Made by a program: the position numbers and the translations under genes. Below, in pieces: positions 1,551 through 28,000 of a stretch of DNA of 30,130 nt. The stretch's first letter is position 1; every line of letters begins with the position of its first letter. The stretch is taken from contig JBNGIO010006281.1 in the NCBI GenBank assembly GCA_049999805.1, positions 170,687 to 200,816 of the forward strand. Direction: 5' to 3'. The notes beneath the pieces were generated by a model that searched no databases, was not told the origin of the DNA, and saw only the letters and a program-made list of their open reading frames with translations. Origin of the DNA: Folioceros fuciformis. Taxonomy: Eukaryota.

Positions 1551-2776
1551 TCGAGCCTTTCCCAGAGGGCCAATTAAACGCCAGAGTCTTGTTATAGCGT
1601 CAGCTCAAGTCTGGTTTCAGGACTCCGACATTCATACTTAATATTTGTTTAATTGTTTAGTCTTCCTATGTAGATGTACAAGTCATGATGCGGCCGAACC
1701 CTTTTCTCTTGAGATGACGCGGTCCATATTCACCACTCGCGTCTGCACCATGTGGAGCGTGTCGCTGAGTGACAGGATTCTCTTCCGGATGCTGCTTAGC
1801 CTACTGGTAGGCTGTGGTAGCAAAGGCATGGGCGTCATTTCCAACAGCTTGTCCAATTCTTTTCACAGAAACGCGTTACTATTAGTAACGTCATGAAAAA
1901 GTGAGGGTCATGAAAAAGGGAGGGAGTGTAAGGGCTGAAACGCGCAGCTTAGATCAGCAGCAAGCTGCCCTTACCACCGGTGAGCCGGTCGATGCTCGCA
2001 GCCAGTGCAGCTTGGCTGTTGCAGGCGCCCTCGATGCTGCCCTCCAAATCCCGGATGGCAGGTCCTAATACGGACGCGATTCCTTGTGCCACAGCCTGCG
2101 CGTCGTTGGCGGATTCTCCCATCACCTTCCTTCAAGCTTGTTTCACCCTAGAAACGAAATGCAGCTGGCAAGGAGATAAGAGGTGTAAACTCGCGTTAAA
2201 GGCCGGGCAATGGATTTCTCCTCTCCAAAGACATTTCTACATATAACCAGCGTTTCCCTGCCCTATGCGACGATTGCTTTGCCAGCAGATAATTGACACA
2301 TGGGCCCATATCTATGTTGATGTGCGTGTGTGATCAGCTTGCCTGCTGTAATCAAACCAGAGCGGAGTTGGGGGCAGGCATCGTTCGGTGCAGGAGCTTC
2401 GCTTCCCTGGCGGATGAAAGTCTATCCTCAGTACAGCTGGGATACGCTTGCTATTCTGGAACTGAGAGTGCAACTGCAGTTTGGGTATGTACTTCTTGCG
2501 ATATAGTCCGGGCGGAATGAGCTTCAAGCTTCCTTTCCCGGTGGTAGTGACGTGTATATCAGAATGTCCCTTCTACACTCCAGTTACGTCGGGGCAAGGT
2601 TGGCTGATTCGAACTCGGTTGTTCTCCATTCCCTGTCAAAGATATCTGTCCACTGTGCTGGACAGTGGAGGCGAGATTGTCTGCGGTACGCGGAATCCTC
2701 TCGTAGGAGGGAGTGTCTGATGAGCCGTGTTGGATACCGTATTAACGCGCCCTCCCACGCTCCCTGGAAATAGGTG

Positions 2777-4536
2777 ATGGGCTGCCTGAACTCCAAGCCT
2801 GCCACGATCGTGCTGCCTCCCGGCTATGAGGACCCTGCAGTTCTCGCTGGGGAAACTGCTTGTGAGTTTGCGCGTTCTTGGAGGAACCAGGCGACGGTAG
2901 TTGGGCGTTTGTCGCCACCGTTCTGTTACTGGCTCACGCTTTCCTTCTCTTGCTGGTTGCAGTCAGTGTTAGCGAGGTTGAGGCCCTGTACGAGCTTTTC
3001 AAGAAAATCAGCAATTCTATGATTCACGACGGCCTCATTCACAAGGTCACTTGCTTGTCTGGGGTTTGTATGGGTTCTGCTAGGGCACAGAGACGTGCTC
3101 ATTTCGGGTGCCGGATGTTTAAGGCTATGCATTGCTTTTCACGCAGGAGGAATTTCAGCTTGCTCTGTTTAGGAACAGCAAGAGGGAGAATCTGTTTGCC
3201 GATCGGGTATGGTTGAGCTTATGGTTCTGCTGCAGAGTCTGTTTGTATTGAGCTGTTTCCGAATGTGAAGGTGCTTCCCTGGTGGGAATAAGGGCTGGAG
3301 TCTGGTATCTGACTTGTGTCCTGCCTTAGTAGGTATTTGATGTCTTTGACACCAAGCGGAATGGTGTGATTGAGTTTGGGGAGTTTGTGCGATCACTCAG
3401 TGTATTCCATCCCAACGCCCCTTTTGAAGACAAAATCAACTGTGAGTTGCGAGAGGGTTGCGCCAGAGTGGAAGGTAATCGTCCAGGTTGTTTTCGGAAA
3501 TGACTGAAACTGTCTCTGTCATTTTTGCAGTTGCCTTTGTACTCTATGACTTGAGACAAACTGGCTTCATCGAACGGGAAGAGGTGGGAAGTTTGTAACC
3601 TGACCTGCTTTCGTCGCCTCTGTTGTGTTTGCTGGCACTTTTAAGTTTCCGAGGTGTAGGTAGCGGGCATGATTGGATTCGCACGTCAAATCCTCCATGC
3701 ACAACATGATGCCGTCTAATGGGTCCGCAGTGACGTTGTTGTGCTCGGGTCACGACGCTTACTCTAGCGAATGACTTTTCCAGGTTCAACAGATGCTTGT
3801 GGCACTATTGTCGGAGTCTGATATGAAGTTTTCAGATGATGTCATCGAAGCTATTCTGGATAAGGTATGCACTTGTTGTTCCTTGCAGTAGCTATGCTTT
3901 GCTAAGGCACGTGAATGCGTACTTAGGTTGAGACTGTTAATGGCGAGGCGATTCTCTGTGAGCTGTGTGTTTGCTGGCGGCACTTAGTTGTGTGCCAGTC
4001 ACTTTCTGCACAGCGTTAGAGATCATGCACACCAGCTTCATCACGTGTTAGTGTAACAGAGATAACGAGGTACATCACTTGATTAGACATACGACGAAAT
4101 TTAAGAGGGAAGTGTGTTAAGAGCCTGCATACCTCTGTCGCGTGTGTGTTGACATGGTGGTTCTGAGGTGACCCCCTCATGGCGGGTGGGATACCAATCC
4201 ATATTGTTTTCCTCCCTGCAAACTCTGATTGCCAGAAGCTTGTTTCGTTGTTGCAGACATTTGCAGAAGCCAACACAAAGTGTGAAGGCAGGATAGACAA
4301 GGAAGAGTGGGTTAGCCTTGTGCAGAAAAATCCAGGGCTCATGAAAAACATGACCCTCCCTTACCTCAAGTAAGTCTTCTCACACACGTGGCCACTGGTG
4401 CTAAGTCTTGTGCCCAATAAAGCTTGATTGCCGGTGGAGAGGCATTTAGTTGCGCGTTGCAATGTGTGGATACAGGGACATCACAACCACTTTTCCCAGC
4501 TTTGTTTTTACCTCGGAAGTTGAAGAGATTGTTTGA
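2777..4536 (+). CDS. CBL: Calcineurin B-like calcium sensor (CBL-A), SOS3/CBL4-like, 214 aa
   Basis: Eight exons: 2777-2861, 2963-3045, 3147-3206, 3333-3441, 3531-3583, 3784-3864, 4257-4369, 4476-4536 (internal sizes 83/60/109/53/81/113 nt). N-terminus MGCLNSK fits the myristoylation plus S-acylation consensus. Contains PPGYEDP, a 14-residue EF1 loop [38 protein letters not shown] and C-terminal [18 protein letters not shown]. Confidence 0.96.
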
Positions 4537-6715
4537 AACTTAAAAATGCGAGCGCGTTTTCAAGTTCTGTATGCATCACGACGCTCAAAGAGTATCCACA
4601 GTTGCTTTCAAATGGTAGGTACTCCGGCCATGCGTCGTCTTCTCGTGACTTAAAGTGGCATGGCCTCTAGTTGCAGCTATCAGATTGGGAAGTGTGCCTC
4701 AGGTAACTAAGTCATTTGAACTGGTTAGATCTCGGCTGCTGTGGTTGTCAACTTAGAACTCCGTCCCGAATTCTGTCTATAGCCTGAGTAGCTGGCAACG
4801 CGTTATACCCAGCCTTGATAGGAAACCTCATAGTGGAGACATAAATGAATATGGTTCCTTTTCACCTCTTGTAGAGTGAAGTTGTGTAAGATCGATCATG
4901 CGTGCTGATCCAGAACGTTCTCGGGAATCCATTTGCAATCTTGGGTGCGGTGAAGGGAATCCGGGGGTAGGCCACTTCCTTTTTGTGATGTGCAACCGTA
5001 TGCCAGTGCCGGCCGCCGTCTGTGATGATCCAAAGTAGTGTGTTGTCCAACGGAAGCGTTCTTTATAGGTGACAACACTACACGTGGTTTTCAGTGGAGC
5101 AAGTGGGCAGGCATCGCCTTCACAGCTAATGCTCGAAACGGCTGAGTTGCGTGATTTTCTAAGAGTCATGTGCTCTCCAGAACCCGCCGCCGTTTTCTGT
5201 TGTGTCCTGCCCCTTGACTCTGCCTGCCCATTGTTTTTTGTATCATGTATTTGTCACCATATTGGGTGATGTGAATCACAGTCGCAGGTATTGCCTTGCT
5301 CTGTTGCTACAGGCAGAAGGGTGAAAACCTAGGATGAGGTTGACGAGAAGTAGGCCATGCTTGTGCCGAAGAGATAGCAACATCAAATAAGTTGCTGGAG
5401 AGGTGGAACGGGGAGGAGAATGGGTATGTGCTCTTCCGTAGATTTTGCTACTGGAGCCTGGATCTAAGAATGGATGGATTGACTATAGATGGTGTCAGAT
5501 TGCAATTTTACTGGTGCCTTTCGTTCATGTATTTGGAACATGGACCTTGTTTGGGTTGAATTGGCCACTCTTGCATAGACAGTGAGGTCTAGCTTGCGGT
5601 TCTGGTAATTTTGTCAGGTGAGGCGTGGTAAGTTGCAGTCCGTCAGCATTCCTGCAACTGTCATCCATGGATGTCTCTCGAGATCTGGACAGTGTGTATC
5701 CAGCATGACCGCAGGTGTTTTGTGCAGACTGTTTTCTGTTGCACATGGTTCGAGTTAGAGGTTGCAAAACGTCTAGACGACGGACGCAGCTTTATCTGGT
5801 ATCACCTTTACCAGGCGATAATTACGAGTTGCATGACTGGCCGCGTCTGGCAACTCACTCGTGGCTGAACCAACTCGTTCATCGGCTGTCATGCGAACAA
5901 AGTTTTGGTGTTCTGAGGAATGTGATTGGGTCTTGCTAGGATGAACACACCCAGTTGACCACTAAATTTCTTATAAACTAATAAAGCAGTGTATAATTGG
6001 TTTCTGGTTTCCGCGGATTAGCCAACTGACAATAGAGAAGTTACTTGTGCACTTCTCCGTCATTCCTCTAAAGGTGTCAGCCTGTTCGAAGCACTTCTCC
6101 GCATGGTTCCACCCGGCTGTCTGCAGAATGCAAGTGCCACATGCAATGCAAGGTGAATTATAGTAGGTTCTAGAACCCTCGCAACTCTCGCTGCAACTGA
6201 GATACAGTACATCCTACACCGTAGTTTCTCCTACTGTTTCTCCTACCGGTGGAACGGGAGCCTGTAATGGATCGTAGGAGCAAGAGAGTGGCTTCTTGGC
6301 TACGGAGGCGATGGGCTGAAACCTCGCTCTTTCAAGATCCAGGTAAAGGGAACTTTTCCAAACGTGGGAGGATTCAGTGTTGAGCGTGCAGAGGCCAAGT
6401 CCTGTGTTCCGGCGCAACGTCCAGGCAGCTGGCTCCCTTTCTTTTAGCAGCTTTATATTTACTGTACTTTGGAGCCCGTAGTGGTGTGTACCTGTTCACT
6501 TGGGCTACATGTACCCCCGTTTCAGATGCATGCATAGCTGGCTAATCGTTGCAATGGCGGACGCTGGTGGCACTCTCGCAAAATCCATCACCCATGCACG
6601 GCGTTGTGCGCACTTTGAGGGTGGCGGGCGTGGCAGTCAATGACAAACCGGCCTGTTGGCCAATCTTGTCTTTGATTGCGCATCCATCTCCCGCTGTGAG
6701 ATAGGGATTGCGGCA

Positions 6716-8569
6716 ATGGGAGCCTCTTGTAGCACCGCGCCTGGTGGAATGAGATGTAACTCCCCCGACGAGCATTCAAGCTATGAGAATGCAAAGCTTC
6801 TCGCTAAGAAAACTTGTTGTAAGTTTGTCGTCGGCACGTGGACGACAAGGACTCAAATTGATCAGATCTTCCGTGCCTTCTTCTTCTGCATTCAACTCAT
6901 TGCGCGCGCGCTGCCTGCAGTTAGTGTGAGTGAAGTTCAGGCCCTGTACGAGCTCTTCAAGAGAGTGTGCCCAACCCTCGACACCGACGGCCTCATCCAT
7001 AAGGTGAGTCGTGCAGGTTTTTTCATGGGTTTGCTTCGGACAGGGAACTGCTCTCGTAGACTAGATGGATGCGTGGCTCTCCGGAGAGAGGTATTCAGCG
7101 AGTGTGGATGCGCAGGATGCTTTCAGGTCGGCTCTGTTCGTTTCTCCACCCGCAAAGGATGGAAAGAGGCGCGCGCAAAAGCCGAACATACTTGTGGAAA
7201 GGGTATTGCTGGTCCCTTGTTGCAGGCTTGTATTGTAGACACATTCCAAGTGACTCGTTTTGTGAACGTTTTGCTTCGTAGCCTTCTGTTGATATCGGCT
7301 CGTTACTGGCAAAAGTCCCACAGAATTGACCTCTGTACAGATATTTGAAGCCTTTGACGGCAACCGACAAGGTGGGATTGGATTTCCGGAATTTGTGTGC
7401 TCCCTCAGTGTGTTTCATCCCGATGCTCCTTTCGCAGACAAAATTGCTTGTAAGTATCAACAGGCTCTGCTATAGTCGGATGACGTAGCTGTTTTTGTTT
7501 TCCAGCACATCTGATTTCAGTGAACGTCGTGCAGTTGCATTTGGACTATACGATCCCAAAGGACTTGGCTATATCGATCGCGCACAGGTTTAAGATCTGT
7601 TCCCGTGCTGTAGAGCTTTTCACCCTGATGGGCGACCAGGCTTTATGTGTTTTTTTGAAAATTCTCATGTAGCTCTAGGTCACTGATTGTGTCACTCTTT
7701 TGCAGGATGCATTTGTGTAGGCATGGACACCTTTCAGCCATTTCATACCGTGTTCTACCATGATTTTATGCCCGTGCCCTGGTGAGTGTTTCCTTTCAGG
7801 TCAGGGAAATGCTTCTGGCGGCATTGGGAGAAACTGGCATGAAGTTTTCCGATCAAGTTCTGGAATCCATTCTTGATTCGGTAGGGGATTGGCTGCTGCT
7901 TAAGAATGTGTTTGCACTTGCGATTTGTAATCAGCGCCATTCCTCATCGGCTCCTATCCTTGCGCACTTTCAGCATCTTTGCCGTGATCGCACACGTGTG
8001 CCCTGGCAGCGGTAAGTTACCTTCGGCAAAGTTTCTGCACAGCATTACAAACGATGCATGACAGCTTGGCCACCTGCGAATGTGCAAGGCAGGGGGAGAG
8101 GTACCGTTACTATTGCCATGGTTCTGCAAATCTGTTGAAGGCGGGGTGACCCAGATTTGAGCCTTGCGGCTTTGTCGTATCCCGTCAAATTGCTTGACTA
8201 TAGGTTGACAGAGTTTTCTGAGCTACTTTTCCAACCATGACATTTCCTGGCTGTTTTTGTTCCAGACTTTTGAGGAAGCCCAGCCAAAGCATAAAGGCAA
8301 GATAGATAAGGAAGAGTGGACTGCTCTTGTTACGAAGAACCCGGCCATCATAAAAAATATGACCATACCCCAACTCCGGTGAGCGTTCTGTTCCCCAAGG
8401 CCCACCATTGATGGGCCCCAAAGTTTTGCGCTTAGAACCCACGGCATAATCAAGTGATAATTCTTCAATGTGCAGAGAGGTGACGAAAAGGTATCCGGAC
8501 TTCGTATTCTACTCTCAGATTCCCGAATCTGAAACGTACTTACAAATAGAAAAGAGACCGAATACGTAA
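6716..8569 (+). CDS. CBL: Divergent calcineurin B-like protein (CBL-B), tandem paralogue, 240 aa
   Basis: Eight exons: 6716-6818, 6921-7003, 7116-7202, 7341-7449, 7535-7587, 7800-7880, 8266-8378, 8476-8569, all GT-AG, same phases as CBL-A, no stops or frameshifts. Protein: MGASCS...[15 protein letters not shown]...DGLIHK...[19 protein letters not shown]...[13 protein letters not shown]...GKIDKEEW...[20 protein letters not shown]. Confidence 0.92.
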
Positions 8570-8787
8570 ACCATTATTTACAGATTCCAGATTGTTCGTT
8601 GATATAATGTACATTGGAAGGATCGTCTTGGGATACAGCCTAGGCGTCTGGTCGTGATCACACATCTGTCACAGTATGTAAAGCATATATCGTGAATATC
8701 CAGCTGGAGTCATTGTAACTATCTATTCACTACGAGATAAACTGATATGGAATGCCCAACTGTCCAGGCAACTGCTAACCTACTTCA

Positions 8788-11700
8788 TCAACCCGAATAA
8801 AATGCTCGGGTACCCAGAAACTCCGAACCATTGCCAGCGAGCTCGATAAGAGGCGGCCGTGAACCCACCGGTGAGGACATAAGCGAATGCATGCGATGAT
8901 CTCCAGCGAAAGGGCTGATTGCCCTGGACGACCTGTCCTTTCCTGGATGTAGAGGACTCCTGCCGATCAGGTGCCTGCGAATGTCTTCCAAAAAGGAGCT
9001 TTCGCTCTTTTTCTCCTTCCAAGGTTTCCTCTCCATGTATTGAGTCGAACTCGGCCTTGCACTGTTTTCGTAACTTCTGTCAGGAGTCAGCTGGGGGGAA
9101 GGGACCTTCATGTGGCCAGGGGAATTGCGAACCAAAAACTGTTTCTGGATTCCGTTCAGAAACGAGACTCTGCTCTTTTGGACCGAGCTGTCCCTCTGTC
9201 CCTGCAGCTTCTGGGGGGCTCCGGAGTCGGCAATACCAGAAGGGAGGCCACGGGCGTCACCAGTAAGATCCTCCCCCATGGTTCGTCCTTTTTGGTCGGC
9301 ATTCTTCACAGCAGTTTTCCTGCGCAGCTTGCCAGGGAATAGAGACTGAAAAGTGGGTATCGCCGTCTTCACCTTCTCTGCCGACAGATGCCTTTTCACC
9401 TTCAGATCTTCCGGCCTAATCTCAGCAATTTTGGTCGCAGTGCCATCACTAATTTTCCTGCCGGGCAACTGATGCTTCCACTGTGTAGCGTCTGTGTTTT
9501 TACTGCCGGCTGAGGACACCCTTTGCTGCACCTGTTGCTCAGTGGGCAACTGATACTTTCTCCTGATATTGCTGAGCTCTTTGGTACCCGACTCTGGCCA
9601 GTCGTCCACCACATTCACTGTCCAGCTATTACAATCTTCTTCGGCGCTTTCGAACGCAGACTCTGAGTCACTGCTTGGTTCGACACTGGCAATGTCACTG
9701 CGGTCTTCGTCTACATCCCACGAACCTCCTCCAAACCGTCTGTCCTTCCGCTTGTTTCTCTCGGAGCGCTGGCTGTTGAGATGTCTCAATCGTTCGCGGG
9801 ACACTCGTCTCGACCTTGTCATCTGAGATCCTCTATCGTGAAACCTCTTGTAGGGTGAGTCGGCATCGGCAACACTCATCAGAGAAGGATCACCGCTCTG
9901 TCTCATAGGGCCGGAATAGCTCATGACTGCATCTGCCCTCTTGGCAGTCTTTGGAGAGATGGTGGGCCTAGGCGGACATCTCACCTTTCCCATGGCGCTG
10001 ACATTTCCGTCTATTTCCATTGCTCTGGCGCTTCCATATTTGCTTAGTGAATCTTTGCTGCTAGAAGTTTTAATACGGCCCACCAGATTGTCGGGGTGCT
10101 GTAGTTTTATTGGGCCTGAGTGGCTCGTGTCGGTGCTTCCGTCGAGCTTCTGCCATTCAGACGTCTCCAGCGTTTTGGCCCTGGATTCCGTGCCTGAAGC
10201 ACTACATTCCCCGCCCTCATGATCACCCGTTGCCTCAGACAAATATTGTGAAAGCTCCACTGTGTCCAAATCCTTGTATAAACCAGCGGTCCGTCGATGC
10301 CTTGAAAATCCCATGGGAGCAACCTTCCTGTCTGTTCCCGCGTCACACTTGTATCTGGAAGGGTCGACTGAAGGAGGACTGAGTCTGGACGTAATGTTAA
10401 TTGGCCGAGGACTCTGCAGCTCTTCCTTCGACGTAGGTGTCTTCCGAGACTTGGGTGAAACGTCATTCGACGCTTGTCGGAGCCCTCCCGTCTGGCGAAG
10501 CCGGGTGCCAGCCTCAAGCAGTCTACTTTGCTCGATGGCATGACGACCCTTGACCTGCTCCACCGTTGCTCTTAGATGCGACATGCCTGACTCCAAATCC
10601 CGCACCTTCTGCTCAGCAATCTCAGTTCTGGACTTCCACTCGTCCGCCCGATCAGCCGTGGCTCTCAAGTCAAGAAGGGTTGACTCCAGCTCAGAGACTC
10701 TCTGCTCGGCCAGTGTGGCTCGTGATTCCCAGACCGCATGTTGCGTCGCGGACGCTCTCATACTGTCAAGGCACGACTCCAATTCGCACACTCTCTGCTC
10801 AGCTGTCTGGGCTCTTGATTGGGACAAGGACACCTGGTGATTTCGAGAAGTTAGAGTGATTCAGACATCACGGTACAGGGGGACGACTCCAACGACGCCA
10901 GGAAAGGAGCCGAGCTCACCTTTGTTTGAAGCGTATTAGAAAGAGTCTCAGCACGTAATGCACGTTCTTCCCATTCTGCGCAGGATTCTGACAGGTTGCG
11001 CATGTCTTCGGAAACATGGTGCAAAATTTCCTGAACTTGAGACCACTGTTCGTTTTCTTGATGGAATTGCTTCAAAATGTTCCGGATAGCAGTCATAGCC
11101 CGTTCCTCAGCCCTTCTTTCTTGATCTGAAAGGCCACATTCAGCCTGTTGAATGGCATGTTGTCGAGGTTCTCGGGTTGATGGTTCCTGGGCACAGCGGC
11201 TGTCGGCATCAGAGAACGCTGGAGATTTCAACGAAGATACCACTGGCAAGAAGGTCAAGTTTTCGAGGGCCACGTACCTGGTCACTCGTGCAGAGTCTTG
11301 AAGAGTCTCGTTCTTCGTGCAGCTTAACATTGGGAGGATCAGATTGAGCACTGTTGTGACCATCGCGTCCTTCAACGCCAAGTGCATCCATCTGGCGAAC
11401 GTTTCCTATCCTCAGTACGTCTCGTCATGCTAGCGAACCATGTTTCAAAAACACGCGTTCAAGCCTCCCGACCGAAAACGAAGTTGCTCACCTCACAGCT
11501 GCTGCCACTCTCGCCAGCAAATCCTCTGCCACTGACCTCCATCAACTTGTCAATACTGCTAGCGACGTCCATCTTAAACGCAAATTTAACAGACCGCCTG
11601 GGCGCTTCACTTGCATTCTACGGCAACATCAGGAGATGAAAGGTCAGGACCTGCTATCAGGGTACTACTGCACAACCCACCTCCAAGAGACAGAAATCAC

Positions 11701-13453: not shown

Positions 13454-13553
13454 NNNNNNNNNNNNNNNNNNNNNNNNNNNNNNNNNNNNNNNNNNNNNNN
13501 NNNNNNNNNNNNNNNNNNNNNNNNNNNNNNNNNNNNNNNNNNNNNNNNNNNNN
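13454..13553. other. Assembly gap (100 N)
   Basis: Run of exactly 100 N, a usual placeholder for a gap of unknown size. It is flanked by a poly-C run and GC-rich sequence. Confidence 0.99.
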
Positions 13554-17222: not shown

Positions 17223-18212
17223 ATGGGAACGCCGGCGTTTCCTAATCTCGGAGAGCACTGCGACTTTTCCGAGTGCAACCTCATCGATTTCCTTCCCTTC
17301 AGCTGTGACCGTTGCGAAAAGGCATGAATCTTTCCACCCTCGTCGTGTATGTTCTGGGGCAGGGGATGCTAGGGCTTTCCTACTGGTTGTGTGTGGATGC
17401 GGACTTCGAGTTGGTCTGTAGACGTGAAACCCTAATGTTTCTGTTTTGCTAACGGGAGTGCAGGGAGAGTTTGCCAGTGCGGATTGACTTGAAGTGTGCC
17501 TGCTCTTGTCGGCATCACCCGGTGGTCTAACAATTGGAGGTGTACGCAGGTTTTCTGCCTGGATCACCGAAGCTATGTCTCCCATGACTGTCCGAAGGGA
17601 AACGTGCACGATGTCACGGTTTTAGTGTGCCCGATGTGCGCCAAGTCGGTGAGACTGGTTCCTGGTGAAGACCCGAATATCACTTGGGACCGGCATGTCA
17701 AAACTAGTTGTGATCCGAGAAATTATGCAAAGGTCGAGAAGCCAAGGTGTCCCGTTCCGATGTGCAAGGAAATGCTCACTATCTCCAACAAGTTTCAGTG
17801 CAAGAGCTGTAGGCGGGAAGTGTGTATGAAGCACAGGTTTGGGCTGGATCATAATTGTGCAAGCTTCATAAATGCTGATAGGGCCAAGAGCTGGTACAAC
17901 TTCTCGTCGAGATCAAGCCAGGGAGCTCGTAGTTCGCAGCCTGCGACATCCAGTTGGTCCAGCGCGTTCTCATCTATCAAATCATCTGCAGAAGCTGGGC
18001 TTTCGAAGCTGAGTTTGTCGGCCGACGAGCTTGTCAAGTCAGTGAAGGGCAGTGCCAGCAAAGTGCAGAATCAATACCTATCGTCTAGTGGACGAAATGT
18101 GTCTTCTGCCGCAGAGATATGTCCTCAATGCAAGGCTCAATTTCGGACAGTGGGAGAGTTGATTGAACATGTGGAGACGTCCCATTCGCGCAGACCTGTC
18201 CAACCATGTTAG
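17223..18212 (+). CDS. AN1-AN1-C2H2 zinc-finger stress-associated protein (SAP11/SAP13-like), 253 aa
   Basis: Exon 1 17223-17321 encodes [33 protein letters not shown]. Exon 2 17550-18212 encodes [17 protein letters not shown]...[27 protein letters not shown]...[37 protein letters not shown] and a C2H2 finger [22 protein letters not shown]. Intron 17322-17549 has a GC donor. Confidence 0.93.
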
Positions 18213-21005: not shown

Positions 21006-22063
21006 TGGAAACTCCATCTTTGTAGAGGGCTACCTACTCCACTACCCCAGCAACCCGCATTTGCCATAGCTCTTTGCAAAGGTATCCAGACTTGTTGTCA
21101 AAAAATAAGGGCACCAGTAAGGAAAGGGAGAGTTTCCCACTAAGCAAAAGGGGGGGGACTGTGTGATAGCCTTTCCAAAGATGAAGCCTGTGCACAATCC
21201 TTGAATAGTCTAAGAGTGCCTTCAACCGCCTGGTGAAGAAATGGCTGCGGATTTCAAGAGCGTAGGTTTGATTTTCAAGCAAGGATGTTCAAAAGGTTCT
21301 CAAAACCATAGAAAAGAAGCAAAAGATTTGGAGGTTCCTCCTACTTACAGTTTTGGTAATATCCTCATGTACTGTACGCACAGTATGCGCAGAGCCTGGG
21401 ACTGACAAAATACAACAATGGTCGATGGCTGATTCGTTGATGGCCAGGCCAACCTCCAGAAAGGAAGTTGCAAACCTAAACATGGAAACGGACAGCGTAT
21501 GACTAGATTGCTTGTCAGACAGCTTGCCGCGCCTGACAATTCTGACACAGCAATCGCGGAGAAGCGCGCAGAACAAGGTGGGAACTACGGCGCGTGAGCA
21601 AAGCAGCTGCTGAGGTCCCGCCCCGCTGGCCTATCTGCCAAAGCGAAGCCTCGGCCACTTACTCCCGAGTCTCGACTGTCTCGTTCCTACAGGGTCGGTC
21701 CTCGAGCTCGGGAATTTCCTTGTCCATGGTCTCCGGAGTTTGGACGGGGAGTTAGCATGATTTTAGAGCTGCCTTTTTATATTTAGTTCCAGCTCCGCAC
21801 TCGGAATTGTGTTCCAGAGCAGGCATGCACGTTCCTGCGAGGCCACGAGGTCGTTTCACGGGGCGGCTCCGGTCTCTGATTCCCGGCTGAATTTTAGGGG
21901 GCTCACCAATCTTACACCTGATGTGCACCTGTGGAGCGCTTGGAAACGTACCGGCGTTGGAACGCGCCACCGCTGAAGAAGATGAGTGAGAATCCTTGGT
22001 GGCGGTAGGATTGCCTGGTGTGGAGCGGGCTCACGCTACTGTCGAAGCTCTTGGCCTTGGACC

Positions 22064-24526
22064 ATGGTGCCTCGGGATGCTATCAATGTTGCTAGAGCAT
22101 GTGCAGTGCTGGTCCAGGTTCAGGGGCCTGATCCCAAGGGCCGGAAGATGAGTCGACACGCGTTTTTCCACTCCGAATCAGGGCAAACCACGCTCTCGGC
22201 TTCGGGTCTGCTGTTGCTGAACGACTCGGAGGTAGACCCTCCGAGGGCACTCACGGTGGTCACCTGCGCGTCTATTGTGGACCCGTTTTTGGTGCAGAAG
22301 CCCAGTGGGGAGTCGGTGGCCAGTACTACGGAGTCTGGTAAGCTCATTGCTGGTGCTAAAGTGGACATTCTTGTTGAGGTTCCCAACGCAGGTGAGCAGT
22401 CCTACTGCTGGGTGCCAGCACAACTGGTAGCTCTGCTTGATGTTCCAGAAGCTGGAAGGGCGTTGCAAGGTCTGCTGGATGTGCATGGAGGAAGTGTGGA
22501 TGGGATTTGGGATGTTGGCTGGTCCTTGGCTCCTGCTAATGAAGATGCCAGAGGACAAGGCCTTGGCCATCAGGCAATTGTAGCGAGGAATTCTTTTTTG
22601 GAGCGAGGAAGCGCGTACGGGGAGCCTGTTTCCAGTTCCACGAGGCACAGGGCCAGTCTAGGGATGACAGCAACCAGGGTGGCTGTTCTCAGTTTATTCA
22701 CAGATGGGAATCGGGAGTTTGTTTTGAGCTTAGGTCAGGTTGCAGGCCGGATACTTGAGATCCTGGAAATGTACAACTTGAAATGCGGGTTGCCTTTGGC
22801 CACGTCCAAGACCCGTGGAGATTTTTTGCTGGCAGTTGGCTCTCCTTTTGGAGCGCTGTCACCTCTCCACTTCCACAACAGCATGTCAGTGGGCTTCGTT
22901 GCTAACGAGTTGCCTAGAAGATCCTCTGCTGCGTCTCTGCTGATGGTGGATTTGAAATGCCTCCCTGGCATGGAAGGTGGTCCAGTGTTTGATGACATGG
23001 GTCGTCTAGTCGGTCTCGTCAGTAGACCTCTCCGCCAGCGCAGTGGTCATGCAGAAGTGCAGCTGGTGACAACCTCGGATGCTTTACTAGGTCCCCTCAA
23101 GCTTGCAGGTGTAAACCTGGGGTTTACCCACGTGCAGCAGGAAGATCCGGTGCCTCAGCGCACGATGGAGAATACTGTGGAGGCAGGCACATGCCTGGGT
23201 GTGCTTCCCAAGCCCGTTCATCATGTCTTCCCCCCGAATTCCATGTCGCCAGCGATTGGCAGTGCTGTATCATCTGTGGTTCTGATTACTATTGGGGATG
23301 CCGCATGGGCTTCAGGAGTTCTTCTGACTGAGAATGGGTTGATTCTGACCAATGCTCATCTCTTAGAACCTTGGCGATTTGTCAAAACACGTCCTTCACA
23401 GTCCAGCATAGTTCGAGGCCTCAGTTGGAACGGTGAAGGGATGCCCGGAGATGTTGGAAGAAACAAGTCTGAGGGAGTATCAATGAGGGAGGAACATGCC
23501 TCTTGTTCAGCCACTCATCCTTTGTGCGAGGTTAGTGGATCAGCCAGTTGTGACTGCCCTAGGGGCGCACATAAGTTACTTGAAGATGCTCCGGGAAGAA
23601 TCCTGTGCAACAAAGCCAATGCAGAGGGGAGTCCTGGCAGAACAGCTCATGCTTCTAATACTAGGCACACTGACACTGTTCACAAAGGGAATCAGCCCAT
23701 CAGGGTGCGTATTGATGACCTTAAGCTAGGATCATGTTCCTGGCATGGAGCGAAGCCAGTGTGCGTTTCTCAGGGACCCTTAGATGTCGCTTTACTGCAG
23801 CTCGACTCAGTTCCTCCTAACATTTGTCCTATCACTCCCGAGAAGGACTGTCCTACTGTAGGTTCAACAGCCGTGGTGATAGGGCATGGTCTCTTTGGAC
23901 CTCGGTCTGAGCTTTGTCCATCAGTCAGTGCTGGTGTGGTTTCCAGAGTTGTGAAGACAGGAGCAGCCACTCTGAACAGCTTTTCGCCGCAGGAGTCCCA
24001 TAGTGATGGTATTCCCAGCTGCGCAGCAATGCTTGAAACGACAGCAGCCGTGCATCCCGGTGGAAGTGGGGGCGCAGTGGTGAATGCTGAAGGGCGTATG
24101 ATTGGCTTGGTTACAAGTAATGCCAGACACAGTGGAGGGACTGTGATACCCAATCTCAACTTCAGTGTACCATGTGCTGCTCTTTCCATAATATTCCAAT
24201 TTGCTGCAGGGAATGGGGAGGATCCAAGTATTTTGCATAGATTAGATGAACCGAATGAACAGCTTTCTGCTGTCTGGGCACTGGTTCCCCCACCCTCGAA
24301 GAGGCCTTCTCCTTTGATACCTCTGCCTCCTCCATCTTCTGCTGGCAACCCTTCAGGTTCCCCTGTCCAAAAAGGCTCCCGGTTTGCAAGTTTTCTGGCT
24401 GACAAGGCTGCCAAGCTGTCCATCAATCCAGGCCCATCCCTGGAGAGTGAGAGAGGGCTCAGACCGCACTCCTCCAACAATGCAGATCACTGTAGTACTG
24501 ATGGCCGTTCTCGTAGTCGCCTGTAG
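22064..24526 (+). CDS. DEG15: Peroxisomal/glyoxysomal processing protease DEG15 (GPP), 820 aa, single exon
   Basis: Continuous ORF from accATGg at 22064. N-terminal VQVQGPDPKGRKMSRHAFFHSESGQTTLSASG and GSPFGALSPLHFHNSMSVG. Degenerate first trypsin-like domain (CLPGMEGGPV). Catalytic triad motifs LTNAHLL, LDVALL and HPGGSGG. C-terminal PTS1 SRL. Confidence 0.95.
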   Translation: MVPRDAINVARACAVLVQVQGPDPKGRKMSRHAFFHSESGQTTLSASGLLLLNDSEVDPPRALTVVTCASIVDPFLVQKPSGESVASTTESGKLIAGAKVDILVEVPNAGEQSYCWVPAQLVALLDVPEAGRALQGLLDVHGGSVDGIWDVGWSLAPANEDARGQGLGHQAIVARNSFLERGSAYGEPVSSSTRHRASLGMTATRVAVLSLFTDGNREFVLSLGQVAGRILEILEMYNLKCGLPLATSKTRGDFLLAVGSPFGALSPLHFHNSMSVGFVANELPRRSSAASLLMVDLKCLPGMEGGPVFDDMGRLVGLVSRPLRQRSGHAEVQLVTTSDALLGPLKLAGVNLGFTHVQQEDPVPQRTMENTVEAGTCLGVLPKPVHHVFPPNSMSPAIGSAVSSVVLITIGDAAWASGVLLTENGLILTNAHLLEPWRFVKTRPSQSSIVRGLSWNGEGMPGDVGRNKSEGVSMREEHASCSATHPLCEVSGSASCDCPRGAHKLLEDAPGRILCNKANAEGSPGRTAHASNTRHTDTVHKGNQPIRVRIDDLKLGSCSWHGAKPVCVSQGPLDVALLQLDSVPPNICPITPEKDCPTVGSTAVVIGHGLFGPRSELCPSVSAGVVSRVVKTGAATLNSFSPQESHSDGIPSCAAMLETTAAVHPGGSGGAVVNAEGRMIGLVTSNARHSGGTVIPNLNFSVPCAALSIIFQFAAGNGEDPSILHRLDEPNEQLSAVWALVPPPSKRPSPLIPLPPPSSAGNPSGSPVQKGSRFASFLADKAAKLSINPGPSLESERGLRPHSSNNADHCSTDGRSRSRL

Positions 24527-25091
24527 TCGGCTGTCTTTCGTATTCGATTCTACCCGTGTGATGTTGGGGTTACTCAAGTGGGCAGGATGGATACAAGGTA
24601 GGTGGTTCGCGGTGTAAATGACGATGACTAGGTAGATGTACAGAAGAGTTGTAGCTCCACATTTTGGGAAGTATGAACATAGACCAGGTAGCGATAAAAT
24701 CTCACCGCGCCGAGGTCTCACAAAGTCTAGGTCGTTTCCCCGGTTCCTTTCGGTTCGTTCCACATTAGGGTTTGAATCTCAACTCTCTTGCAAGTGCCAA
24801 ACAAACTACGGGTGGAGTTTCTCTCCTAAATGCAAGGGGTTGGGTGTTCGTGATCTAGCTCACTGCCCCTGTTTCCTTTTCTAAGGCACCCAGCAAATGC
24901 AGGACTTAGCAGGGCGCGAGGACATATGATGGCAGATCCGATGGTGTGCCCAAGTTCTCCACAGCCAAGCACCTCTCACCATTCTAATGGATGGGAGAAG
25001 GAGAAGAGGAAGGAAAAGGGAACTTGAAAGCAATCCTTCAACGTTCCAATACCTTCCAAAATCCTTCCTGCATGCATGACTTGGCACAAGC

Positions 25092-28000
25092 ATGGAGAAC
25101 GAGCATGAGTCCAAGATTGCCGAGGAAGAAGACAGCTTATACCAAGAAACAGCAGATCTTGAAAATATTCCTCTTGAGGAAGTGTTTGAAAAATTGAAGT
25201 GTACGAGACATGGTTTGAGTAGCACCGAAGCTGACATAAGGATCAAGTTAGTTGGTCCGAACAAACTAGAAGAGCAAAAAGAGAGTTTGATATTGAAATT
25301 TCTTACTTTCATGTGGAATCCTTTGTCATGGGTAATGGAATTGGCGGCACTCATGGCACTAGTTTTAGACAATGGTGAGCACAGACCCCCGGATTGGCAG
25401 GATTTTGTAGGGATTACATGTTTGCTAGTGTTGAACTCAACAGTAAGTTACATAGAAGAGCAAAATGCAGGGCAAGCAGCTGCCGCCTTAATGCAGGCTT
25501 TAGCTCCAAAAGCCAAGGTTCTGAGAGACAATGCGTACAAGGAGGAAGATGCCGCAATCCTTGTTCCTGGGGACATTATTTCCATAAAGTTAGGAGATAT
25601 AATCCCTGCCGATGCTAGATTACTTGAAGGGGATCCTCTACAAATTGATCAATCTGCTCTAACTGGAGAATCCGTAGCAGTCACAAAGAGGACAGGCGAT
25701 GAGGTTTTCTCTGGGTCAATTTGCAAGCAGGGTGAGATTGAAGCTGTGGTCATTGCTACTGGTGTTAGCACATTTTTTGGAAAAGCTGCACACTTGGTTG
25801 ACACAACACATAATGTAGGACACTTCCAACAAGTTCTAACAAACATAGGCAATTTTTGTATTTGCACAATTGCATTAGGAATCATCATAGAAATCATCGT
25901 CATGTATCCCATCCAAAAACGAAAATATCGAAATGGTATTGACAATATGTTGATTCTATTGATTGGAGGGATTCCAATTGCCATGCCAACTGTATTATCG
26001 GTTACAATGGCAGTGGGATCTCACGGGCTTGCAAAGCAAGGAGCAATTGTTAAACGCATGACTGCCATAGAAGAAATGGCTGGCATGGATATTCTATGCT
26101 CTGATAAAACTGGGACATTAACACTAAACAAATTGACTGTTGACAAACACATAATTGAAGTTTTATCAAAATCAGCAGACAAAGATTTGATTTTGCTGAC
26201 TGCTGCACGGGCATCGCGTATAGAAAATCAGGTTGCCAGGTTATGACAAGATGGAATTTCATTAGTACAAGTAGTTTGTTAATGTATGTTTTAGTTCATT
26301 GTCTTGGGTATGAAGTGTTTCATTAAATGAGGATGATGAATGGTGAATGCAGGATGCAATTGATCTTGCAATTGTGAACATGCTTGGAGACCCAAAAGAA
26401 GCACGCCAAGGTATTGAGGAGGTTCATTTCTTGCCTTTCAATCCCACTGATAAAAGAACTGCTATCACATACATCACTGAAGATGGAAAAATGCATCGAG
26501 CTAGTAAGGGTTCCCCTGAGCAAATACTGGAGTTAGCAGAGAACAAAAAGAAAATTGAAGCTAAGGTGTATTCTATAATAAACAGATTTGCAGAAAGAGG
26601 ATTGCGAAGTCTTGGAGTTGCTTATCAGGTACCTTGAAGATTCATGTACTTCTAAAATGCCCACAAAATTTCATATTGATTTGTGCAACAAGATTTGTTT
26701 AAGTTCTTAAAAGGGTCTTGGAGACACCGTCGAGTAAACTTGATGTCATTCACTGACAGGAAGTTCCTGAGTGTTCTAAAGATAGTCCAGGTGGACCATG
26801 GGAAATGCTAGGAGTCCTGCCCTTATTTGATCCTCCAAGACATGATACAGGAGACACAGTTAAGCGTGCGTTGCAGTTGGGTGTTAATGTCAAGATGATA
26901 ACTGGTGATCAATTGGCGATTGCAAAGGAAACTGGGCGTCGTCTTGGAATGGGTACTAATATGTACCCTTCATCAGCCATATTTGGTGCTCACCATGAAG
27001 CATCAACAGTAGGGGTGGATGATGGAGAACTTATTGAACATGCAGATGGGTTTGCTGGAGTCTTCCCAGAACATAAGTATAGTATAGTTAAAAGACTCCA
27101 AGAGAGAAAACATATATGTGGAATGACAGGTGATGGAGTGAATGACGCCCCAGCTCTGAAGAAAGCCGATATAGGTATTGCAGTAGCTGATGCTACAGAT
27201 GCAGCACGAAATGCTGCAGACATTGTGCTCACTCAACCAGGTTAGGTCGACTACTACTGCTACTACTTCCATCACAAAGACAACTTTCTTGCACAACTTG
27301 CTTACACTCTCCCTAAACTTCCTTCACTTCTAGACTAATAAAACTAAAAAGAGGAAACCATGTGCACAGGATTGAGTGTCATAATTAGTGCCATCCTCAC
27401 CAGTAGATGCATATTTCAACGCATGAAGAATTACACCATCTATGCCGTATCTATTACAATACGTATTGTGCTTGGATTCACTTTGATGTCTCTTGTATGG
27501 AAATTTGATTTTTCTCCATTTATGATTCTAGTCATTGCTATTCTAAATGATGGTACAATAATGACTATATCAAAGGTATTTATTTCTCAAACTATTTTCT
27601 CAAATGAATAGTTTGAAAAGCTTTGAATAATTCATCAAATTTGGGTTAACGAAAAAATGATTTATCACATAATGGTAGTGTGTTTGTGTGTTTTGTAGGA
27701 TAGAGTAAAACCCTCTCCGCATCCTGACACATGGAAGCTTGCTGAACTATTTGTTCAAGGTACTTGTCTCGGGGGCTACCTTGCTCTAATGACTGTGTTG
27801 TTCTATCATCTTTTACATGACACAAAATTCTTCGAAGAAAAGTTCAAAGTGCAAACTATTGCACATAATTCTGCTAAAGAAACTGCTGCCATATACTTGC
27901 AAGTTTCAATTGTAAGTCAGGCTCTTATATTTGTGACAAGATCACAAACTTGGTCCTTCATGGAAAGGCCAGGATTTCTTCTGGTGATTGCTTTTATCAT

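Follow-up and report, generated by a model that had tools for sequence, protein, structure and literature searches.

Calcineurin B-like (CBL) proteins of land plants, such as AtCBL2 (PDB 1uhn/2zfd) and AtCBL4/SOS3 (PDB 2ehb), carry a C-terminal FPSF sequence in the so-called PFPF motif, and the Ser in this sequence is the phospho-acceptor of the partner CIPK. According to two papers (PMC4990929, PMC7461506), phosphorylation in the PFPF motif is needed for full CBL-CIPK activity. The FPSF site is reported for all three Marchantia CBLs (PMC10953335), and Beckmann et al. noted that the CBLs outside Viridiplantae are without the motif (2016, PMC4990929). Some algal CBLs have Asp or Glu in place of the Ser in this motif (PMC7461506, citing Sanyal et al. 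2020). In this study, we analyzed a window of Folioceros fuciformis DNA, meaning the whole stretch of 30,130 nucleotides from contig JBNGIO010006281.1, that harbors two CBL genes in tandem on the + strand, CBL-A followed by CBL-B (Table 1), and CBL-B has an Asp at the position of this Ser. The composition of the window (about 50% G+C, introns near 100 nt) is that of plant-like eukaryotic DNA. Our tentative reading, to which we give a probability of roughly 45%, is that CBL-B is a relaxed yet constrained, fast-evolving paralogue that would have lost phospho-regulation and much of its Ca2+ ligation, and whose output would be limited by unproductive splicing.

The last coding exon of CBL-B reads, on the + strand from position 8476, A GAG GTG ACG AAA AGG TAT CCG GAC TTC GTA TTC and ends with TAA at 8569. 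The donor (8378|GT) and the acceptor (AG|8476) split an Arg codon into CG and A. The pairwise alignment pairs the Asp (residue 218) with the Ser of FPSF in CBL-A, and the only match in the window to a back-translated FPSFVF pattern was that of CBL-A at 4492-4509; a C-terminal FPSF with a phosphorylatable Ser was not found in CBL-B, which has YPDF. Both the sequence and the alignment thus bear out the claim of the earlier note that a GAC codon in the last exon of CBL-B stands where CBL-A has the Ser. The exon is also joined as predicted in RNA-derived sequence, where a contig of the run X3 connects 8378 to 8476 (listed as 8377->8475, cut +1). In an alignment with 99 full-length CBLs, which are mostly CBL2/3-type angiosperm proteins, the three commonest residues of the phospho-site column were Ser (85), Glu (10) and Asn (1). 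With Asp at the CIPK phospho-acceptor position, CBL-B therefore cannot be phosphorylated there, and the permanent negative charge of the Asp may imitate phospho-Ser. Ser-to-Asp reportedly served as such a mimic in CBL studies (Du et al. 2011; Hashimoto et al. 2012).

Apart from this position, CBL-B has the build of a canonical land-plant CBL. It shares with these proteins the four EF-hand-like units, the typical exon sizes of 83, 109, 53, 81 and 113 nt and a C-terminal P...[FY]P.F motif. The CBL exon-intron plan is conserved, since the exons of CBL-B (103/83/87/109/53/81/113/94 nt) correspond in size to those of CBL-A (85/83/60/109/53/81/113/61 nt) and the phases are identical; every intron of the CBL-B model is GT..AG, with all 14 splice dinucleotides intact. 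The four EF-hand units aligned column for column with the 99 CBLs, and the loop of the first unit is of the long CBL type. Fixed spacing between EF hands is a trait of the CBL family. Exon 3 of CBL-B (87 nt vs 60 nt) adds nine residues between EF1 and EF2, and all the other spacings are equal to those of CBL-A. Unlike canonical CBLs, CBL-B has Asp for the phospho-Ser and Tyr for the first Phe, this nine-residue insertion and a longer C-terminal tail, and it has lost conserved ligand residues of EF1, EF3 and EF4.

In local blastp searches, CBL-A was 65-72% identical to seed-plant CBLs (nine best, near-full-length matches), and the spliced CBL-B protein was 44-49% identical to CBL representatives for the nine best, near-full-length matches and 41-52% for the 22 best. 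Against PDB, exon 7 of CBL-B matched AtCBL2 (1uhn, E 1.3e-11) and AtCBL4 (E 6.5e-07), and the last exon alone gave only a chance-level match (E 0.17). The Pfam matches of single exons to EF-hand models were all below the curated cut-offs; the EF2 exon scored 15.1 bits in CBL-B and 22 bits in CBL-A, with a cut-off of 25.4. At the N-terminus, CBL-A starts with MGCLNSK and CBL-B with MGASCS, so that Gly2 and Ser6 are retained and the Cys is at position 5 instead of 3. The type I motif for dual lipid modification is defined as MGCxxS/T in PMC10953335. The transcribed 5' leader of CBL-B, from the start of the RNA contig (6568) to the main ATG (6716), contains an 11-codon upstream open reading frame at 6640-6675 (+). 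No CIPK gene was found among the 10 long open reading frames of the window that were scanned.

The earlier note also described the EF hands of CBL-B as degenerate, and our alignment with the 99 CBLs agrees with it. In EF1, Ala replaces the loop-closing Glu (87 of the 99 references) and Thr replaces an Asp (82 of the 99), and the ligand residues of EF3 and EF4 are changed as listed in Table 1. These losses suggest a blunted Ca2+ response or lost Ca2+ binding of CBL-B. The EF4 of CBL-A is also unusual; therefore, a non-canonical EF4 may be older than the duplication of CBL-A and CBL-B. The alignment has 93 columns with a conservation of 90% or more among the 99 CBLs; CBL-B kept 68 of them and CBL-A kept 82, leaving 25 and 11 deviations, respectively.

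A maximum-likelihood tree of 37 CBLs placed CBL-A and CBL-B as sisters (98/87), with terminal branches of 0.10 and 1.68 (about 17-fold), that of CBL-B being the longest. The sister relation and the long branch indicate, therefore, that CBL-B arose by tandem duplication from a CBL-A-type gene and has evolved far faster than its sister. The two proteins are identical at 114 of 208 aligned residues. We simulated neutral drift by substitution only, starting from the CBL-A coding sequence, with 5000 runs per level. The frame stayed open in 1818 runs at 0.05 substitutions per site, in 139 at 0.2 and in 31 at 0.35. Since few frames remain open after long neutral drift, most of the divergence of CBL-B was accrued with its frame under selection.

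The kind of the run X3 was a guess ('RNA?'). It contained 42% of the sampled sequence words of the CBL-B region and gave a list of 15 GT..AG joints. All seven CBL-A introns were reproduced exactly as GT..AG joints in its contigs, and X3 is therefore cDNA-derived. The runs X5 and X6 contributed no sequence. A single X3 contig of 4098 nt extends over CBL-B and confirms five of the seven model introns (1-4 and 7). In this assembled transcript, exon 6 begins at the acceptor of 7706 instead of 7800, and a cassette exon is included in intron 6. The transcript would encode 149 residues. The premature TAG at 7718-7720 is followed by three exon junctions, and a stop with three downstream junctions is typical of a substrate of nonsense-mediated decay. 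An alternative exon or site leading to a premature stop upstream of exon junctions is the hallmark of unproductive splicing, and the CBL-B transcript has this arrangement. The earlier note asked whether transcripts use the YPDF exon as their last exon. The last exon is indeed used in RNA, but the only assembled transcript carries the premature stop after exon 5 and the frame-shifting exon, and the YPDF tail would not be encoded by it.

The same contig continues about 2.7 kb beyond 8900, where a 690-residue open frame without a Pfam match lies convergent to CBL-B at 8788-10860 (-). The 3' ends of the two convergent transcripts therefore probably overlap. Because the contig continues into this minus-strand gene, its mean depth is uninformative on the expression of CBL-B.

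The cassette exon contains a block that is conserved between intron 6 of CBL-B and that of CBL-A. It was found as an ungapped alignment of 88 nt with a score of 24, and the maximum of the shuffled sequences was 15 (0/200 shuffles reached the score); the core recovered by blastn was 4003-4038 vs 8032-8067 at 78%. Five of the six other intron pairs were not above their shuffles. Intron 2 was borderline (1/200), with similarity between the 5' parts at 3065-3100 in CBL-A and 7020-7053 in CBL-B, into which the blastn match of exon 2 extends. A donor-like GAG|GTAC site is nearly colinear in both genes (4069/4070 in CBL-A and 8100/8101 in CBL-B). An Rfam search of 2400-8900 gave no match, and the block corresponds to no catalogued RNA. 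It suggests that an old alternative 'poison' exon is common to both paralogues; in the one run, the CBL-A contig leaves it out and the CBL-B contig has it. As the cassette coincides with a block conserved between the paralogues, its inclusion is suggested to be regulated rather than accidental.

The earlier note held that a CBL of this type, as a Ca2+-independent activator or decoy, would be an undescribed variant of CBL-CIPK signalling. This was not supported, as Asp or Glu is already in print for the algal proteins (PMC7461506), and acidic forms of grasses and of a Carex species are present in public proteomes. The algal CBLs share the natural acidic substitution of the phospho-Ser with CBL-B. 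A search with exon 7 of CBL-B against 1.84 billion representatives gave 132 matches, including a CBL of Oryza punctata (A0A0E0JZU6) that ends with ...FPEFVFHSQVKD. The 90% cluster of this protein includes further Oryza proteins that likewise carry FPEF, among them those of O. sativa (XP_015624428.1) and O. glaberrima. A search with the O. punctata protein itself gave 1512 matches, of which 120 were listed, and we examined 114 proteins (the query and P0153-P0265); seven listed matches with ids earlier than P0153 were left out of the motif count. The motif at the FPSF position was FPSF in 94 of the 114 and FPEF in 12, with single cases of FTDF (Carex littledalei), FPNF, FPGF and LPTF and four proteins without a readable motif. 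Among the listed matches, FPEF came from Oryza, Leersia, Phragmites, Eragrostis, Eleusine, Urochloa, Miscanthus, Paspalum and one Logan sequence. The FPEF proteins are P0065, P0137, P0141, P0154, P0155, P0157-P0163, P0165 and P0183, and the rice protein XP_015624428.1 corresponds to the locus Os02g0480800.

Five FPEF proteins included in the tree formed one clade (100/100) with a stem of 0.65, nested in the CBL2/3-type group. Like CBL-B, this grass clade has a fixed acidic residue at the phospho-acceptor, within a PFPF motif that is otherwise normal in the clade, and a long branch. It differs from CBL-B in having Glu rather than Asp, conservation across many genera and an independent origin, and the EF3 and EF4 loops of the one member that was read (P0065) look ordinary, unlike those of CBL-B. 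The Carex protein, a CBL3 isoform (P0256), has Asp at the same position as CBL-B, in a single sequence in which the Pro is also replaced. Taken together, the algal Asp/Glu, the grass FPEF and the Carex FTDF indicate on sequence grounds that acidic replacement of the phospho-Ser is a repeated change in CBL evolution that can be stably kept. As the acidic residue is fixed across a monophyletic grass clade, such CBLs can persist. In the open literature, we found no paper on FPEF, FPDF, YPDF or FPTF in CBLs, none linking the FPSF of CBLs with aspartate and none naming the rice FPEF locus, and supplementary alignments (e.g., Fig. S1 of PMC10953335) may hold more variants; the PFPF motif is not mentioned in Kleist 2014. 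The grass FPEF clade itself may be undescribed.

From these observations, the following course may be proposed for CBL-B. It would have arisen as a lineage-specific tandem duplicate of the adjacent CBL gene and would then have evolved much faster, retaining the CBL exon plan, an open frame of 240 codons and most of the family-wide conserved residues. During this time the phospho-Ser would have changed to Asp, and the conserved Ca2+ ligand residues of EF1, EF3 and EF4 would have been lost. The full-length protein, if it is made, would be a CBL outside the feedback phosphorylation by CIPK, in which the fixed negative charge plausibly takes the place of the phosphate, like that of the FPEF proteins of grasses, and the Ca2+ response would be blunted. 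Its output would be kept low by unproductive splicing through the alternative acceptor and the cassette exon that overlaps the conserved intronic block. In our reading, CBL-B is a relaxed paralogue, sub- or neo-functionalised, of which the kind has been noted before, and it represents no new signalling mode.

Several points weigh against this reading. The PFPF region of CBL-B is altered overall (Y->Q, TT->KR, F->Y, S->D), and the Asp may therefore be one relaxed change among many. The ratio of non-synonymous to synonymous divergence between CBL-A and CBL-B is about 0.26 (dN 0.35, dS 1.33), a value that covers both branches and has a dS near saturation; when dN is split by the branch lengths of the tree and dS is halved, a rough estimate for the CBL-B branch is about 0.5. 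A recent loss of constraint may also have occurred in CBL-B, as at 0.05 substitutions per site the simulated frame often stayed open. The searches for orthologues of CBL-B found none, although the queries were fragments and not the spliced protein, which makes this weak evidence of absence. The exon-7 open reading frame gave no match to longer proteins. The frame at 6716-7348, which covers the first two exons and the intron between them, gave four matches, all with E of at least 2, and the 132 matches of exon 7 had a best identity of 67% with no close relative. The canonical joints 7587->7800 and 7880->8266 were in no X3 contig, one contig fully explains the depth bins of 7208-8277, and the only CBL-B transcript contig has its premature stop before exon 6. 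The transcript data come from one run and consist of contigs, in which rarer variants are lost, and not of reads, and three joints are unlisted. A minority productive isoform of CBL-B may therefore exist.

A different explanation, which we consider a serious possibility even if we do not favor it, is that CBL-B is an expressed pseudogene or in early decay, with the Asp and the EF changes as neutral by-products and its transcript degraded as nonsense RNA. The 17-fold longer terminal branch, the 25 deviating conserved columns compared with 11 in CBL-A, the premature stop and frame-shifting exon of the only assembled transcript and the missing orthologue in the fragment searches are all in line with decay. 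There is also a precedent in mosses, as the Physcomitrium paralogues PpCBL5 and PpCBL6 were described as a likely pseudogene or not expressed (PMC10953335). They resemble CBL-B in that they are lineage-specific extra CBLs of a non-seed plant and their function is doubtful; unlike them, CBL-B has an open frame and is transcribed. Decay is opposed by the 240-codon frame and the 14 model splice dinucleotides, which are intact despite the very high divergence and would be unlikely to survive long neutral drift, as the simulation at 0.2 substitutions per site indicates. Many of the changes are conservative, core residues are retained, and part of the included cassette exon is conserved in the functional paralogue.

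The proposal that CBL-B is hard-wired in the phosphorylated state, as an activator independent of Ca2+ or as a decoy titrating CIPKs, appears unlikely to us. In its favor, the Asp is placed exactly at the phospho-acceptor in a motif whose phosphorylation is reported to be needed for full activity (PMC4990929, PMC7461506), three EF loops lack conserved ligand residues and the N-terminal Met-Gly with a nearby Cys is retained. Yet the C-terminus would be missing from the product of the main assembled mRNA, the motif is altered in its hydrophobic flank too, and the loss of EF ligands could equally yield an inactive protein. In a more elaborate form, which we hold to be quite improbable, a conditional full-length CBL-B would be membrane-anchored and would hold CIPK active without Ca2+ or feedback phosphorylation, its dosage being set by an ancient intron-6 poison exon shared with CBL-A, so that splicing and not calcium would be the switch. 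It is very improbable that CBL-B functions as the N-terminal fragment of 149 residues, which comprises EF1, EF2 and a portion of EF3 and would make the YPDF tail irrelevant. This fragment is what the sole assembled isoform encodes, with its reading frame ending at 7718-7720, but its stop upstream of three exon junctions is that of a typical decay substrate. Exons 6-8 are open and CBL-like, as the match of exon 7 to AtCBL2 indicates, and therefore selection on the full-length frame is favored. A relaxed yet constrained paralogue thus remains our preferred reading of CBL-B.

Table 1. Positions of the features of CBL-A and CBL-B in the window
Feature	Position	Strand	Remarks
CBL-A gene (coding sequence)	2777..4536	+	8 exons, 214 residues; starts MGCLNSK
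CBL-A exons	2777-2861, 2963-3045, 3147-3206, 3333-3441, 3531-3583, 3784-3864, 4257-4369, 4476-4536	+	
CBL-A conserved intron-6 block	3967..4054	+	Skipped in CBL-A transcript contig (joint 3864->4257)
CBL-A EF4 loop	4281..4319	+	Asn at position 1 (references D 99/99), Glu at 5 (references D 98/99)
CBL-B gene (coding sequence)	6716..8569	+	8 exons, 240 residues; homology-based model
CBL-B exons	6716-6818, 6921-7003, 7116-7202, 7341-7449, 7535-7587, 7800-7880, 8266-8378, 8476-8569	+	
CBL-B EF2 loop	7356..7394	+	D, N, Q, E kept; only loop with ligand-type residues at 1, 3, 5, 12
CBL-B EF3 loop	7552..7587	+	Followed by V in exon 6; Leu at position 5 (references Q 89/99), Gln at 12 (references E 96/99)
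CBL-B exon 6 5' extension, 94 nt	7706..7799	+	Acceptor AG 7704-7705; GAT GCA TTT GTG TAG, in-frame stop 7718-7720; joint 7584->7703 (cut +3)
CBL-B cassette exon, 127 nt, in model intron 6	7974..8100	+	Frame-shifting; TAA 8013-8015 in canonical frame; joints 7879->7973 (cut +1), 8098->8264 (cut +2)
CBL-B conserved intron-6 block	7996..8083	+	Inside cassette exon 7974-8100
CBL-B EF4 loop	8281..8319	+	Gln at position 1 (references D 99/99), Lys at 5 (references D 98/99)
CBL-B last coding exon	8476..8569	+	Stop TAA 8567-8569; joint 8378->8476 in X3 contig
CBL-B YPDF codons TAT CCG GAC TTC	8492..8503	+	Asp GAC 8498-8500 for FPSF Ser, Tyr for first Phe

Some other loci of the window were also recorded. 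Plasma-membrane H+-ATPases are known targets of CBL-CIPK, and a single 388-residue frame at 25080-26246 (+), which continues downstream, matches AHA2, a plasma-membrane H+-ATPase of plants, over its N-terminal third (PDB 5ksd, E 1.3e-186). Around this frame the G+C content drops from about 50% to 38-42%. An 846-residue frame at 21986-24526 (+) has a trypsin-like peptidase domain of the Deg/HtrA type (Trypsin_2, E 6.3e-29), and a frame at 17493-18212 (+) has zinc fingers of the ZFAND2-type C2H2 and AN1 classes that also occur in stress-associated proteins. The 100 N at 13454-13553 represent an assembly gap within a long minus-strand open frame.

Our result is a corrective one. The Asp of CBL-B is real, yet acidic residues recur at this position and are already in print, and the only mRNA observed is unproductive. 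The intron-6 block and the cassette exon may matter more than the Asp, as CBL genes may share a conserved control by splicing there. If the protein is made, CBL-B would be one more natural experiment on what the phosphorylated tail does in CBLs. The grass FPEF clade is another, and as it is present in rice it would be the easier system for the study of natural phospho-mimicry.

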